64,000 nt of DNA. It comes from an uncultured Bacilli bacterium. Lineage in GTDB: Bacteria; Bacillota_I; Bacilli_A; RF39; UBA660. The stretch is taken from NCBI GenBank assembly GCA_944371305.1, contig CALVXM010000002.1, positions 34,661 through 98,660 on the forward strand, written 5' to 3'. The position numbers and the translations under genes are program-made. Below the pieces are notes generated by a model. That model was not told the origin of the DNA and did no database searches. It worked only from the letters and a program-made list of their open reading frames with translations. Below, one piece after another: positions 48,147 to 60,800 of this stretch. Every line of letters starts with the position of its first letter. The stretch's first letter is position 1.

Positions 48147-48267
48147 AATTATTCACCCATTAAAATTTTATCATCTTTAGCTATTTTATTCAATATTCGC
48201 CTTGATATTAATTTTAAAATTAATTAAATCAACAATATATTTTATTCAACAAAATTAATATTATTTA

Positions 48268-48297
48268 ACAAAAAAATCGACTCATAAGAATCGATTT
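48268..48297 (-). terminator. Intrinsic terminator closing the tRNA-His-adjacent islet operon
   Basis: AAATCGA-ttcttatgag-TCGATTT hairpin followed by a T7 run on the minus strand, downstream of the last islet gene. Confidence 0.5.
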
Positions 48298-48411
48298 CTA
48301 TCTTGAAGTCTATTCGACTTTTTTCCATTCTGGGGCAATAAACAAACGAGTTTTGCACCCAAGTAGTAAAAGTATTTAATAATACTTGGTAAATTAATTG
48401 TAGCACATTTT

Positions 48412-49047
48412 TTATAATTTGTTAATATATTCAGTTAAAATTAAGTTTAATAATTTCATTATTTTTTCTTTTAAAACAGTAACCTCTTGTAATGCTGTTT
48501 CATTAAAAATATCACGTGCTAAAGGCATATCAACCCCTATTTCGTAATGATATTTGTTATCATATAAACAAATTCCAACATCAATATTTTCATCAATCAA
48601 TGTTTTATTTATTTTTTTATATAATTCAAAATCTTTTGGTTGAACACAATAATGAAATACATCATTTCTAAAAGACAAATATTTAGCATTTACTGTATCA
48701 GGATATTCTTCTGGTTTTAAAGTTTCATCATTTAATTCCTCAAATAGCTTTCTAATTTCTTCATTAGTATTCCAATTATCATATAATTTTTTATAATATG
48801 GCGATCTTTTTATAGTACCTAGTAGTTTTAACCCCTCTTTTAAATTGCTTACAAGATTTTTAAACAAATACATTAACATATTACTTAATTGACTATTTTC
48901 TGTATCTTTATTGCCCTTATAAATTGAATCAAACATTTGCGTATTTATAAACAAATCATTATATAAACGCGAAATATTATAATATGCAAAACCTGTATAA
49001 TCAGGTTTATAAAATTTTTCTCTAGTTATATTTTTATTTTCTATCAT
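48412..49047 (-). CDS. Hypothetical protein, third gene of the QueC-like operon (candidate effector)
   Basis: 211 aa, with no recognisable motifs (no TatD HxH, no nuclease or TM signatures seen). The start is 2 nt after the QueC-like stop, with a GGAG RBS inside the upstream gene. Confidence 0.4.
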   Translation of the reverse strand: MIENKNITREKFYKPDYTGFAYYNISRLYNDLFINTQMFDSIYKGNKDTENSQLSNMLMYLFKNLVSNLKEGLKLLGTIKRSPYYKKLYDNWNTNEEIRKLFEELNDETLKPEEYPDTVNAKYLSFRNDVFHYCVQPKDFELYKKINKTLIDENIDVGICLYDNKYHYEIGVDMPLARDIFNETALQEVTVLKEKIMKLLNLILTEYINKL

Positions 49048-49049
49048 AA

Positions 49050-50336
49050 TTACTCCAATACTTTAAAATACTTTTCTAATTCTTTTGCAAAATTATTAAG
49101 TAAACTTTCTATTTCGCTTAAATAATTATCATCGCAATAATACCTCTTATCCAAATCAAGATAATTATATATACTTTTATCCATTATTGCATTATAAAAT
49201 TGTTTATAATATAAAATTAAAGACTTTTTTTCACTATATTTATAATATGCGGCCTTTAAATCTTCATCTATATTATTTTTTTTAGAAATACTACATTCAT
49301 ATTCTTTTATTTTTTTTAAATCAATTAAGTTTTTGGGTAAACAATAATCGGAATCATACATGTCTAATCCATTATTATGAATTCCTATTTGACGTAATAT
49401 ACATGCAATGCAAACTCCACAATGAAAATTACCTTTATGCTTATTTCTAAAATGTACTATTCCTGGATTTTTTGAACATGTCCTAGTATTATTTTTAATA
49501 TGCATTAAATAATTATCTGGAATAAAACTTATCACCTCAGATTTTGTTTTATATTTAAACGGATTAATAACTGAAATATTAATACCAAGTTTTTCTAATA
49601 TTTCATTAAACATAAATAATGTTTTTTGATTAGTGGTCTTAGTAACTCTTCGACTAAAATTAAATTTTGGATTTAAAGACATTATTCCATTTTCGTATAT
49701 TTTAATTTTATTTATGTTGTAATAATCTGCATAAATTATACAAGAAACTAAAAACATTAACGATCTTGTTCTTTCTGTATAATGACTATCACATTTAAAA
49801 TTTTTCTTTAAAATTTCTACTCTAACATTATTAACATCTTTTATTAATTCATCATAAATTTTGGCTGAGTTATTCAACTCTATTGAATTAGTCTGAAATG
49901 TAACAAATATCGTATTATTAGATTTTTCAAATTGCGTTCCAGCAAGTGAATCTAACCCTCCCGATAGGAGACAAATTGAATTGTATTTAATTGTATCTAC
50001 ATCCAGATGATTATTATCAATAAATTTAGGAGTTTTAATTTTATAAAAATTTATATTCCAATTTTCTCCATTAGTAACATATTTTACTAATTTATTAAGT
50101 TCATCTTTTATATTATTAAATAAATCTAAATTATTAACTGGAATATTAAGTGTCAATTTTTTCAGATTATTAGTGTCTTCATCTCTTGGAGTATAAAAAT
50201 CAGTATATACAATATACGATAATGCATCAAACAAGTCTAAAACTATAGAATTACCATAATTTTTAATTCCTAAAAGATTGTTCGCATTATAATGTTCTTG
50301 ATACGGGAGTTTTTCTTTAAATAAAATACTTTTCAT
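49050..50336 (-). CDS. QueC-like PP-loop ATPase (QatC/Cap9-type, with ~120-aa N-terminal extension)
   Basis: PP-loop SGGLDS (ICLLSGGLDSLAG) and a C-terminal Zn cysteine cluster C-x17-C-x2-C-x2-C (HCGVCIACILR), as in QueC. At 428 aa it is twice the size of housekeeping QueC. The start overlaps the upstream stop (TAATG). Confidence 0.75.
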   Translation of the reverse strand: MKSILFKEKLPYQEHYNANNLLGIKNYGNSIVLDLFDALSYIVYTDFYTPRDEDTNNLKKLTLNIPVNNLDLFNNIKDELNKLVKYVTNGENWNINFYKIKTPKFIDNNHLDVDTIKYNSICLLSGGLDSLAGTQFEKSNNTIFVTFQTNSIELNNSAKIYDELIKDVNNVRVEILKKNFKCDSHYTERTRSLMFLVSCIIYADYYNINKIKIYENGIMSLNPKFNFSRRVTKTTNQKTLFMFNEILEKLGINISVINPFKYKTKSEVISFIPDNYLMHIKNNTRTCSKNPGIVHFRNKHKGNFHCGVCIACILRQIGIHNNGLDMYDSDYCLPKNLIDLKKIKEYECSISKKNNIDEDLKAAYYKYSEKKSLILYYKQFYNAIMDKSIYNYLDLDKRYYCDDNYLSEIESLLNNFAKELEKYFKVLE

Positions 50337-50998
50337 TATGCACCAACCCTCCTTAATTTATTCATTATAGAAGTCATTGTATTCTGTACCTTTTTATCAA
50401 AATTATTTTCATCATTAATTTCCATTTTCTCAATATCATTAATTATTATAGGATAAACTTTCAAGTTCATATAAGAATCTAAATCAGTATTATAATCTTC
50501 AGTGCTAAATTCTGGCAATTCATTTATACAATCTTCAAATGTATATTTTTTATAAATGTTTTCAACAATATTTTTAATAAATAATGATATAAATTTTAAA
50601 ATATTTCCATTAGCATCAAAAACCGATTCCTCATCTATACTTTCTTTAAAGGATGTTTTTAATAATTCGTCATCATCTATACCTAAATAATCGCATAATA
50701 TTTCCTTTTGCTCAATTATAGAAAAAGATGATATACCACCTAATCCTATTGATGATAAAGAATTACTATGGTAAGCTTTTGAAACTCTATTTAATTTTTG
50801 AATACATTGAGATAATTTTTGAGAATATAATTTGTTTTGCAATTCACTTCTAACTTTAGATACTCCTTTTGATGGATAAATCATTTCAGAAAGTAATTGC
50901 CCAATACCTTTTCCTGTTTTTCCTACTATTCCATCAGTTATTCCTGATTGAATTATTTTTGATGTTCTTTTATATGTGTTTCTTGTTGATGAACCCAT
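50336..50998 (-). CDS. Small partner protein with predicted Met-Gly N-terminus (QatB-like candidate substrate)
   Basis: The track ORF starts at GTG 51028. In-frame ATGs at 51013 (MGSGSMGSS...) and 50998 (MGSSTRN..., GGGGAG RBS 7 nt upstream) both give Met-Gly N-termini. Translationally coupled to the QueC-like gene; no known domain. Confidence 0.45.
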   Translation of the reverse strand: MGSSTRNTYKRTSKIIQSGITDGIVGKTGKGIGQLLSEMIYPSKGVSKVRSELQNKLYSQKLSQCIQKLNRVSKAYHSNSLSSIGLGGISSFSIIEQKEILCDYLGIDDDELLKTSFKESIDEESVFDANGNILKFISLFIKNIVENIYKKYTFEDCINELPEFSTEDYNTDLDSYMNLKVYPIIINDIEKMEINDENNFDKKVQNTMTSIMNKLRRVGA

Positions 50999-51077
50999 AC
51001 TACCACTCCCCATAAAAAAAGGCCACACAAAACTTACTCAAAGTCTGTACTAGCCCTTTAAATCTATCAATATTATA

Positions 51078-51599
51078 TCAAATATTACTACAAATTACTA
51101 TGTTTCCTTTGTTTTTTTGATTTTGTAGCATCCATTTATATTCTTCTAATTCTTTTAAATAATCTCTTCTAAAATAATTTTCATGTAACCATTTAACTCC
51201 TTCTGCTTTTACAAAAATCATACCTGCTGATTCAAACTTAATTGGATATGGAAACTCCTTTTGCATTCTGTGGACTGCTACTTGTATTACATTTCTACTT
51301 TTATTAAATTCTAAATCTAAAAATCTTAATAAAGTATTTTGATATTTCTTAGGTTGAGGAATTATTCCTAATTCCTGTCCTAAAGCAAATATTCTTTTTT
51401 TATAGAATTCTATTTCTAAAGTTAAATAGTGTTCTTCTTTATTAAAATAAACTTCTTTTAACCATTCAACACATTCTTGTTTTATATATACCTTTTCTTT
51501 ATTATTTTCTTTTATTCTTTTAATCCAAGATTCTAAAGGATGTCTTCTTTCTATATTTCTCATAATTCTACCAAATTGTTTTGTAGTTAATGAAAACAT
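51078..51599 (-). CDS. Hypothetical protein with internal duplication (possible phage antirepressor ORF6C-like module)
   Basis: Two copies of Y/F-[IV]-K-x-E-x-V-x-W-L-x-E-x-YF (YIKQECVEWLKEVYF / FVKAEGVKWLHENYF). Weak or absent RBS. Confidence 0.3.
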   Translation of the reverse strand: MFSLTTKQFGRIMRNIERRHPLESWIKRIKENNKEKVYIKQECVEWLKEVYFNKEEHYLTLEIEFYKKRIFALGQELGIIPQPKKYQNTLLRFLDLEFNKSRNVIQVAVHRMQKEFPYPIKFESAGMIFVKAEGVKWLHENYFRRDYLKELEEYKWMLQNQKNKGNIVICSNI

Positions 51600-51757
51600 T
51601 TCTTGAACTTGTTTTCTATCTATTAATTTTTCACTTATAAAATATCTCCTTTCAAAAGATAAAGGGACGGGTAACGTAATATAAAAATTTTATCTATCAA
51701 GCATGGTGTATACACACCCGTCCACTTGTTAGGGAATACTCCCTAAAACCCTAATAA

Positions 51758-51964
51758 TTAGTCTCCGACAGTTTTATTTTTTTCTATATATTTTTTACTA
51801 ACTTCATTAGATTTTTCAATCATTTCTTTCACTTCTTTTTCATAACTCTTATTATTAATTAATACTTCAGAAAGCAAAGAATAAGATATATCATTTGTGT
51901 TTTCTTTAAAATACTCTAACAATTGTGGTGCAACTATTTCAAAGAAATAATTTATAAAATTCAC
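51758..51964 (-). CDS. Hypothetical small protein
   Basis: 68-aa ORF at the tRNA-proximal edge of the islet; no motifs. Confidence 0.25.
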   Translation of the reverse strand: MNFINYFFEIVAPQLLEYFKENTNDISYSLLSEVLINNKSYEKEVKEMIEKSNEVSKKYIEKNKTVGD

Positions 51965-52051
51965 CGCCTTTACAAAAGAAAAAAGTCCATAATACGAAGT
52001 ATTACGAACTTTTACTTATTTAACACACAAAAGTGTGCGTAAATTTCAAAG

Positions 52052-52128
52052 TGGGGCGCAATAAGGGATTCGAACCCTTGCATAACGGAACCACAATCCG
52101 CCGTGTTAACCCCTTCACCAATTGCGCC
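52052..52128 (-). tRNA. tRNA-His (anticodon GTG) with encoded G-1 and CCA
   Basis: Manually folded: 7-bp acceptor stem GCGCAAT/ATTGCGC, extra 5' G-1 pairing with discriminator C73, anticodon stem GCGGA/TCCGT with loop TTGTGGT (GTG), T-arm AAGGG-TTCGAAT-CCCTT, and encoded CCA. Confidence 0.9.
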
Positions 52129-60717: not shown

Positions 60718-60800
60718 AACTAATATCTCCTTCCGCCATGACTAAACTAAGTCATAGAAATTTAATGCCTTTATATTATAACAAAGAAAAACGATAAAAA

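Follow-up and report, generated by a model that had tools for sequence, protein, structure and literature searches.

The question raised by this locus is whether the small gene lying directly upstream of a QueC-like gene encodes a protein that is modified by its neighbor at an N-terminal glycine, as proposed in a preliminary description, and what function such a pair may serve. The literature on protein deazaguanylation referred to in that description is real: Cap9 conjugates a 7-deazaguanine to Gly2 of the CD-NTase (10.1101/2025.04.06.647259, as cited in PMC13279940 and PMC13376578). Based on the analysis of the window (the entire stretch of 64,000 nucleotides), we regard it as fairly probable that the upstream gene codes for a compact QatB-type partner of a QatC-like enzyme, that this partner is conjugated at Gly2, and that both belong to a three-gene anti-phage cassette together with a third gene, termed X here. 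The features of the locus are listed in Table 1.

Table 1. Features of the qatB-like/qatC-like/X cassette (positions within the window).
Feature	Position	Strand	Remarks
qatB-like CDS	50336..50998	(-)	220 aa; start set by homologues; mechanical ORF extends to GTG 51028
Codons 1-7, MGSSTRN	50978..50998	(-)	invariant N-terminal motif; proposed acceptor is Gly2 after removal of Met
Shine-Dalgarno GGGGAG	51006..51011	(-)	7 nt before ATG 50998; read from the sequence
qatC-like CDS	49050..50336	(-)	428 aa; PP-loop enzyme of the QueC family, its translation coupled to that of the qatB-like gene
Gene X	48412..49047	(-)	211 aa, HEPN-like; R127-x4-H132-Y133 invariant; starts 2 nt past the qatC-like stop
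Terminator-like hairpin with U-run	48272..48299	(-)	113 nt downstream of gene X

Three codons of one frame on the minus strand come into consideration as translation start of the qatB-like gene, namely GTG 51028-51026 (MWPFF), ATG 51013-51011 (MGSGS), and ATG 50998-50996 (MGSSTRN...). The preliminary description had correctly read Met-Gly at both ATG codons and placed a GGGGAG ahead of the second one, but only ATG 50998 appears to be used. All 30 homologues (27-98% identity) start with MGSSTRN and none of them carries an upstream extension; in loci L001 and L004, an in-frame stop is located 7 and 5 codons upstream of this motif with no start codon in between, and the gene of locus L014 starts with a GTG immediately after a TAA. 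The related loci contain AGGTGA or AGGAAG at the position of GGGGAG, whereas no Shine-Dalgarno sequence precedes ATG 51013 or GTG 51028, where a T-run is found instead. The upstream MGSGS actually represents the Shine-Dalgarno region ATG-GGG-AGT-GGT-AGT translated in frame, so that finding Met-Gly twice is in part a coincidence; likewise, the 'Gly-rich N-terminus' ascribed to the protein was an overstatement. As judged from these comparisons, ATG 50998 is the sole true start of the gene.

A view on the alignment of the qatB-like family (232 columns) shows that residues 1-7 form its only invariant run of more than two residues, contributing 7 of the 20 invariant columns. The Gly2 codon appears as GGT, GGA, GGC, or GGG in the different loci, which places the selection at the level of the protein instead of the DNA, and synonymous changes in codons 2, 3, 5, and 7 rule out a constraint at the DNA or RNA level as the reason for the invariant start. 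A eukaryote-type N-myristoylation signal was also considered, but is inapplicable in bacteria, and the Arg at position 6 presumably does not fit the consensus. When the family is widened to members of 18-80% identity, invariance is left at M1, G2, and S4 only, while position 3 is either S or T and many of the distant members read MGTS. This pattern of M1, G2, (S/T)3, and S4 equals the acceptor motif MG(T/S)S known from the literature. All 13 canonical QatBs, taken from annotated qatABCD operons, start with MGTS, which is known as the conserved N-terminus of canonical QatB and in which a G2D exchange abolishes defence (PMC13279940). Gly2 of MGSS is thus supported, by comparison rather than by biochemistry, as the probable site modified by the QatC-like enzyme.

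The QueC-like gene downstream proved to be a qatC by its sequence and active-site motifs. Its product matches QatC of PADLOC at 2.8e-39 and QatC chain 9vlk_A of the PDB at 7.8e-21, and reaches 160.9 bits with NCBIfam NF041925, which is below the equivalog cut-off of 280. Invariantly shared with seven canonical QatCs are the SGGxDS motif (S125-S130; S125, G126, G127, D129, and S130), T232/T234 (TxT), R189/R191, E215-N216-G217, C287/C306-G-x-C309-x-x-C312, and R315. On the basis of these matches, the gene codes for a divergent QatC keeping the PP-loop, TxT, and zinc motifs. Its reported coupling to the upstream gene also holds, as the stop codon of the qatB-like gene (TAA, 50338-50336) overlaps with the ATG at 50336 in a TAATG sequence, and an AGGAGG is located 9 nt upstream of this ATG. 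The qatB-like gene directly precedes the qatC-like gene in 18 related loci, as is also the case in the 13 annotated qatABCD operons.

As previously described, the remaining part of the qatB-like protein contains no recognizable domain: neither single sequences nor profiles gave a usable match in Pfam, PADLOC, NCBIfam, PHROGs, or the PDB sequences. The NCBIfam QatB model NF041924 did not detect the protein at E <= 10, nor did the PADLOC QatB model at E <= 1, and the family profile had no match among PDB sequences. The miss by NF041924 says little, because this model also misses the QatB from a bona fide qatABCD operon of Rhodococcus; an Acinetobacter QatB is scored below its cut-off. A reading of GIVGKTGKG (residues 23-31) as Walker A motif was discarded, as the spacing is wrong and the sequence is not conserved in homologues. 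The AF2 model (pLDDT 90.2) predicts an all-alpha protein of 10 helices with residues 1-5 disordered or of low confidence, helix 1 beginning at residue 10, and two long helices close to the C-terminus, which agrees with the description of QatB in PMC13376578. In a Foldseek search of the PDB, the two top matches of this model were the QatB chains 9y02_A and 9y01_A (TM 0.55-0.58, probabilities 0.94 and 0.92, E-values 0.7-1.0), while all others stayed at TM <= 0.25. The remote-homology comparison with QatB that had been suggested earlier yielded a collinear hhalign match of the widened family to 13 canonical QatBs over 173 columns (P = 4.3e-4, probability 34%), compared to P values of 0.1-0.36 over 17-59 columns for reversed and unrelated controls; this match emerged only after distant members and more QatBs were included, as a previous comparison of close homologues alone with seven QatBs had found nothing (P 0.15). 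An exhaustive HMMER search retrieved no bridge sequences of canonical QatB length, all 33 cluster representatives being about 210-228 aa long. The proposed QatB-like identity is backed by the predicted fold, the MG(S/T)S start, the gene position, and a weak profile match, which make a compact, shortened relative of QatB probable.

Two other views of the upstream protein have to be weighed against this assignment. Translation could begin at ATG 51013 or GTG 51028, both of which are in frame and the first of which likewise yields Met-Gly, so that MGSSTRN would be internal and a different N-terminus exposed (GSGSMGSS... or MWPFF...). With such an extension seen in no homologue, stop codons 0-7 codons ahead of MGSSTRN in related loci, and the only Shine-Dalgarno sequence belonging to ATG 50998, this is almost certainly not the case. 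The protein could also be an unrelated all-helical one that was recruited independently to the same or another role, e.g., as toxin, antitoxin, or scaffold of gene X, and resembles QatB by convergence. We consider this unlikely, since the QatB chains stand alone among the structural matches, the profile match runs collinearly over nearly the whole helical body and is far better than the controls, and gene position, coupling, and start motif are all as in QatB; the failure of the NCBIfam model would apply to the bona fide Rhodococcus QatB as well.

The assignment of the pair as relatives of QatB and QatC leads to the question of its genomic setting. The order of the qatB-like gene, the qatC-like gene, and gene X (B-C-X) is constant in 15 related and three distant loci (18 in total). 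Neither QatA (a KAP-family NTPase) nor QatD (a TatD nuclease) is encoded in the cassette or its flanks, and no adjacent nucleotidyltransferase (CD-NTase) or TGT-like (Cap10) gene was found, in the window as well as in the related loci. According to published surveys, qatA and qatD adjoin only about one third of the genes of the QatC cluster. The missing QatA and QatD and the conserved third gene are points absent from the preliminary description. The product of gene X has a putative HEPN-like fold with an extra beta-hairpin and inserted helices, although no Pfam HEPN family scored above threshold. Its Rx4HY motif contains R127 and H132 as invariant residues in 47 sequences and recurs in the distant cassettes, where it reads RHDAFHY and RDILIHY. 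Gene X most likely replaces QatA/QatD as an accessory or effector, being a putative RNase, which is the least certain part of our explanation. The hairpin downstream of it (RNA fold of -13.3 kcal/mol, z = -3.06, none of 200 shuffles equally stable) probably marks the end of the operon; it was not flagged in a consensus terminator scan because it contains few G-C pairs. An upstream ORF of 173 aa (51078-51599) was dismissed as fourth component, as it is not conserved beside the cassette in other loci, and an Rfam scan of the window revealed no preQ1 or other relevant riboswitch. The three-gene cassette is rare and occurs in Bacillota metagenomes from the gut, within defence islands, where its neighbors are restriction-modification genes, Cas9, Mrr, AbiEii, AIPR, and MutH-like genes, integrases, and TnpV. 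The GC content of the cassette is 21-22%, compared to 27-33% in the flanks, and it adjoins a tRNA-His gene; no convincing direct repeats from integration were detected around the island. With a HEPN-like gene in place of QatA/QatD, the B-C pair represents a novel version of an anti-phage system already described in the literature.

A possible course of events starts with translation from ATG 50998, as indicated by the comparison of homologues. Methionine aminopeptidase cleaves Met1 where residue 2 is glycine. Met1 of the qatB-like protein would therefore be removed by this enzyme, and its removal from canonical QatB was established by Edman sequencing (PMC13376578). The short and flexible tail GSSTRN may then enter the cleft that holds the active site of the QatC-like PP-loop enzyme. 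By analogy to Cap9-CdnD and QatBC, a carboxylate substrate, either 7-carboxy-7-deazaguanine or a related molecule, would be adenylated at the expense of ATP, and the adenylated group would be passed to the alpha-amine of Gly2. The B-C pair would be at the heart of an anti-phage cassette of three genes that is complete in itself. In this cassette, the probable RNase encoded by gene X may depend for its activity or recruitment on the state of the qatB-like protein, which is the least certain of these steps.

The same data may be read in a different way if the qatB-like protein acts as non-covalent partner, whose N-terminus serves as plug, sensor, or allosteric element in the QatC-like active site and triggers defence on release or displacement. 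[quoted passage not shown] However, the QatB peptide GTSKAY was reported by one group in NDG-modified form with MS/MS site assignment, albeit at a low level (PMC13639016), and the ATP-binding and TxT catalytic residues of QatC are required for defence and retained here, whereas a plug needs no intact catalytic site. The precedent of Cap9-CdnD is also covalent, and we regard a non-covalent partner as rather unlikely. Published deletions of the QatB tail also abolish Qat defence. The cassette could further serve a purpose other than phage defence, either as addiction or toxin-antitoxin-like module or in a metabolic 7-deazapurine function on mobile elements. HEPN proteins are indeed commonly toxins, the cassette resides on mobile DNA, and the anti-phage role of the B-C-X variant is a prediction. 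This appears very unlikely nevertheless, because the enzyme contains the remodelled pocket of QatC (TxT where QueC has the Tyr/Asp for reading CDG), QatC fails to complement queC (published), the neighbors are overwhelmingly defence genes, and canonical QatBC provides phage protection, being sufficient by itself against lambda-vir (published).

As seen in the wider family, M-G-(S/T)-S is the lone feature common to otherwise unalignable QatB-type proteins. It offers an easy criterion by which substrates of this kind can be recognized and annotated starts that were mis-called can be put right. In the variant, the system is pared down to three genes, all of them small and closely coupled, a tail of nine residues takes the place of the long disordered linker, and gene X is the obvious candidate for an output enzyme with a mutable two-residue catalytic motif. 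The cassette may therefore be a convenient system for asking whether the N-terminal glycine is modified, with what, and what is controlled by it. More tentatively, and with more doubt than confidence, B-C-X may be envisaged as a distinct streamlined defence system, in which a HEPN RNase would be under the direct control of the N-terminal conjugation that a QatC-type enzyme carries out on a linker-less QatB; if true, an effector acting after protein deazaguanylation would be identifiable for the first time outside CBASS. The host is represented by a 1.34-Mb genome of an uncultured Bacilli bacterium, and the modifying group might differ from 7-carboxy-7-deazaguanine.

Among the known systems, QatABCD comes closest. 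Its QatB (9y01/9y02; QatB-QatC complexes 9vlk/9zee) is likewise encoded directly upstream of and coupled to qatC, consists of about 10 alpha-helices, two of them long, and shows M-G-(T/S)-S as its most conserved part (PMC13279940, PMC13376578, PMC13639016). It is also the best structural match and a weak collinear profile match of the qatB-like protein, the tail of which is predicted to be flexible. In contrast to the 250-330 aa of QatB, the qatB-like protein comprises only 220 aa and lacks the Gly/Pro-rich disordered linker of 30-90 residues as well as the essential LIPxW segment (Pro16/Trp18); it starts with MGSSTRN instead of MGTSxxxxGP, is not recognized by NF041924 or PADLOC, and its operon is devoid of qatA and qatD. 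The qatC-like protein shares with QatC (NF041925, PADLOC PDLC02214) the PP-loop SGGxDS, TxT replacing the Tyr/Asp of QueC, RxRS, ENG, the Cys/zinc motif, and N- and C-terminal extensions, but shows only approximately 20% identity to proteobacterial QatCs, with a poorly aligning C-terminal extension and a score well under the NF041925 cut-off. In type IV CBASS, as proposed here, a QueC-family enzyme (Cap9) acts on the free N-terminal glycine (MGGS in CdnD) of a partner whose gene lies beside its own (10.1101/2025.04.06.647259, as cited in PMC13279940 and PMC13376578), whereas the cassette described here contains no CD-NTase, Cap10 (TGT-like), or cyclic-nucleotide effector, and its enzyme belongs to the large QatC type, in which the substrate pocket is remodelled, rather than to the minimal Cap9 type. 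Finally, gene X differs from HEPN RNase toxins and effectors (HEPN-MNT toxins 5yep/7ae2/8xdj, HI0074 1jog, Csm6, and Las1) by its extra beta-hairpin and inserted helices, and from the HEPN-MNT toxins by the absence of an MNT partner, but carries the Rx4-6H catalytic motif typical of the HEPN superfamily.

As re-reading of the sequence confirms, the two in-frame ATGs of the qatB-like gene B, the GGGGAG preceding the second one and the coupling of B to the qatC-like (QueC family) gene C had been described accurately; the stop codon of B overlaps the start codon of C in a TAATG at 50336, and an AGGAGG is located within the 3' end of B, ahead of C. Met-Gly is indeed encoded at both ATGs, but only that at 50998 should be regarded as the translation start, as judged from sequence comparison: all full-length B homologues in a set of 30 from a database search (27-98% identity) begin with MGSSTRN, two related loci (L001 and L004) contain in-frame stop codons 7 and 5 codons upstream of this motif without an intervening start codon, and a third (L014) starts B with a GTG immediately after a TAA. 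The GTG at 51028 (MWPFF), the competing start named in the preliminary description, is not borne out by these homologues, and both this codon and ATG 51013 are preceded by a T-run only, with no GGGGAG-like element. The MGSGS encoded upstream results from reading the ribosome-binding site in frame, so that this additional Met-Gly is incidental. Residues 1-7 of B represent the sole invariant run of more than two residues in the alignment; the Gly2 codon occurs as GGT, GGA, GGC and GGG across the loci, and synonymous changes are also seen in codons 3, 5 and 7, which argues for selection on the peptide. An extended -10-like element, TGATATAAT, is found about 75 nt upstream of the B start, overlapping the stop codon of a 173-aa ORF; it was not listed in a consensus promoter scan.

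Coordinates of the B-C-X cassette and neighbouring features in the window
Feature	Position	Strand	Remarks
Mechanical ORF of B	51028-50336	-	GTG to TAA, read from sequence
In-frame ATG	51013	-	MGSGS..., inside mechanical ORF of B
In-frame ATG	50998	-	MGSSTRNTYKR..., inside mechanical ORF of B
GGGGAG	51011-51006	-	7 nt before ATG 50998
C	49050-50336	-	428 aa
X	48412-49047	-	211 aa; 2 nt after C
Hairpin with U-run	48299-48272	-	3' of X; -13.3 kcal/mol, z = -3.06
TGATATAAT	51072-51080	-	extended -10-like element
173-aa ORF	51078-51599	-	
Low-GC block	48200-52000		cassette and two unknown ORFs
tRNA-His	52052-52127	-	directly upstream of low-GC block
L31-Firmicutes leader	60727-60757	-	Rfam; 34.7 bits, gathering score 33.3

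By its sequence, C is a divergent yet genuine QatC-type enzyme, matching QatC of PADLOC at 2.8e-39 and solved QatC structures at 7.8e-21 (9vlk_A), and scoring 160.9 bits with the NCBIfam QatC, under the equivalog cut-off of 280. Identity to QatCs is about 20%, and an alignment with seven of them from annotated plasmid-borne qatABCD operons shows that SGGxDS (S125-S130), RxRS, ENG and the Cys/zinc motif are kept, together with T232 and T234. The two pocket threonines stand where QueC and Cap9 have Tyr/Asp, and are essential in Pseudomonas QatC. In one of two near-identical metagenome contigs carrying the cassette (L016, 4720-6014; L017, 4719-6014), C is split into pieces of 109 and 302 aa, apparently through a frameshift or an error of assembly, with B and X intact.

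The protein B had been described as lacking a recognisable domain, and it finds no match in Pfam, PADLOC, NCBIfam NF041924, PHROGs or PDB sequences with single or profile queries. The failure of NF041924 weighs little, because a QatB encoded in a complete qatABCD operon of Rhodococcus also escapes this model. Among 1.84 billion representatives searched exhaustively with HMMER, only 33 clusters belonged to the B family, whose distant members (18-31% identity) begin with MGTSTR, MGTSSK or MGTSSR; M1, G2 and S4 are the only invariant columns in a 28-sequence alignment of this wider family. MGTS is likewise the N-terminus of all 13 canonical QatBs taken from plasmid operons, several of which have mis-called starts. 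In seven plasmid loci (L012, L013, L027, L029, L030, L031 and L032), the RefSeq start of the QatB or 'hypothetical protein' is annotated too far downstream, the frame being open up to MGTS (GTG-initiated in L027), and such mis-annotations have also been remarked on before (PMC13279940). The remote-homology comparison proposed earlier was run with hhalign and aligned the wider B family collinearly with the 13 QatBs over 173 columns (P 4.3e-4, probability 34%; B residues 9-189 to Pantoea QatB 53-240), versus P 0.1-0.36 over 17-59 columns for unrelated and reversed controls. The AlphaFold2 model of B from the 30-sequence alignment (pLDDT 90.2) is all-alpha with 10 helices, two long ones near the C-terminus, and disorder at residues 1-5 only; published QatB has 10 helices, including two long ones in the core, and its N-terminal loop protrudes (PMC13376578). 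From the model, the N-terminal motif, the hhalign match and the gene position, we read B as a remote QatB homologue which lost the long disordered linker, and the comparative evidence supports its interpretation as the QatB-like partner of C.

The third gene product, X (76 homologues; model pLDDT 90.8), seems rather likely to be HEPN-like. It carries an invariant R127-x4-H132-Y133 motif, present as RHDAFHY and RDILIHY in distant cassettes, and Pfam gave hints of HEPN_MAE_28990 alone, all sub-threshold. In the literature, no report was found that connects QueC-type enzymes to a HEPN partner.

The preliminary description referred correctly to published deazaguanylation by QueC-like enzymes (Cap9, and probably QatC). 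According to PMC13279940 and PMC13376578, Cap9 of type IV CBASS attaches 7-deazaguanine to Gly2 of the CD-NTase, which starts with MGGS. In QatABCD, a 1:1 QatB-QatC complex is enough against lambda-vir, the QatC active site holds the QatB N-terminus (PMC13639016, PMC13376578), Met1 removal from QatB was established by Edman sequencing (PMC13376578), and defence is abolished by QatB G2D, an N-terminal tag or deletion of residues 14-22 (PMC13279940, PMC13639016). An NDG-modified form of the QatB peptide GTSKAY has been detected by one group, although intact-mass MS was negative (PMC13639016). Another group was unable to reconstitute the QatC reaction and, in view of the TxT pocket, suspects that the substrate is a different one. 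The N-terminal-glycine idea is thus already published for canonical QatB.

In the cassette, comparison fixes the N-terminus as GSSTRN from start 50998. Met1 is removed when Gly follows, and B should accordingly expose Gly2. By analogy, its tail would enter the QatC-like pocket of C, which would adenylate a carboxylate, 7-carboxy-7-deazaguanine or another, and transfer it to the Gly2 amine. More speculatively, the state of B might control or recruit X as a HEPN-type RNase, leading to growth arrest or transcript cleavage upon infection; X may be accessory and not the sole effector, since QatA and QatD are dispensable for protection by canonical QatBC.

The cassette has a GC content of 21-22% versus 27-33% in the flanks, and the low-GC block gives the impression of a small island that inserted next to tRNA-His, with no flanking direct repeats or integrase found there. 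The 173-aa ORF, which by eye contains an internal duplication (ECVEWLKEVYFNKEEHYL and EGVKWLHENYFRRDYL), has no family match and does not accompany the cassette as a conserved neighbour at other loci. Neighbours elsewhere include restriction-modification genes, Cas9, Mrr, AbiEii, AIPR, integrases and TnpV. Of 185,579 species genomes, only 6 contain the cassette, each of them a gut or animal-associated MAG, and B is about 99.5% identical between the window and OZ007025.1, the 1.34-Mb chromosome of an uncultured Bacilli bacterium.

Compared with canonical Qat, B (220 aa, helix 1 from residue 10 in the model) lacks the QatB linker of 30-90 Gly/Pro-rich residues and the LIPxW segment essential in QatB; in their place, B has Y9 and R11, which are conserved among close relatives, and R6, which shows almost no variation across the wider family. 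Neither QatA (KAP NTPase) nor QatD (TatD) is encoded in the window or any related locus examined, and X always follows C, both in 15 loci, which represent some ten contexts, and in a further three distant cassettes with B only 20-31% identical. Two plasmid loci show other arrangements. In Sinorhizobium chiapasense pB (L026, 3702-7439), a QueC-like gene 30% identical to QatC has genes for XRE-family and PIN-domain proteins downstream of it and, upstream, one for a small protein starting MTDGPF, not Met-Gly; this locus may represent a different QueC-based module. In a Natrinema salinisoli plasmid (L025, 3455-7047), an archaeal QatC-like gene precedes one for a 417-aa hypothetical protein, the small upstream protein (MGTATRGRSG) is split into two annotated ORFs, and the locus encodes neither a KAP NTPase nor TatD. 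In a published survey, qatA and qatD adjoin no more than roughly one third of the QatC-cluster genes. The QatC family is modular, and B-C-X is one undescribed module combination. It is a variant of the published Qat type, in which a compact, probable QatB and a divergent QatC are joined by a putatively HEPN-like third gene in the absence of QatA and QatD. Although the core idea is already in print, this streamlined cassette provides a clean and convenient system for experiments on open Qat questions.
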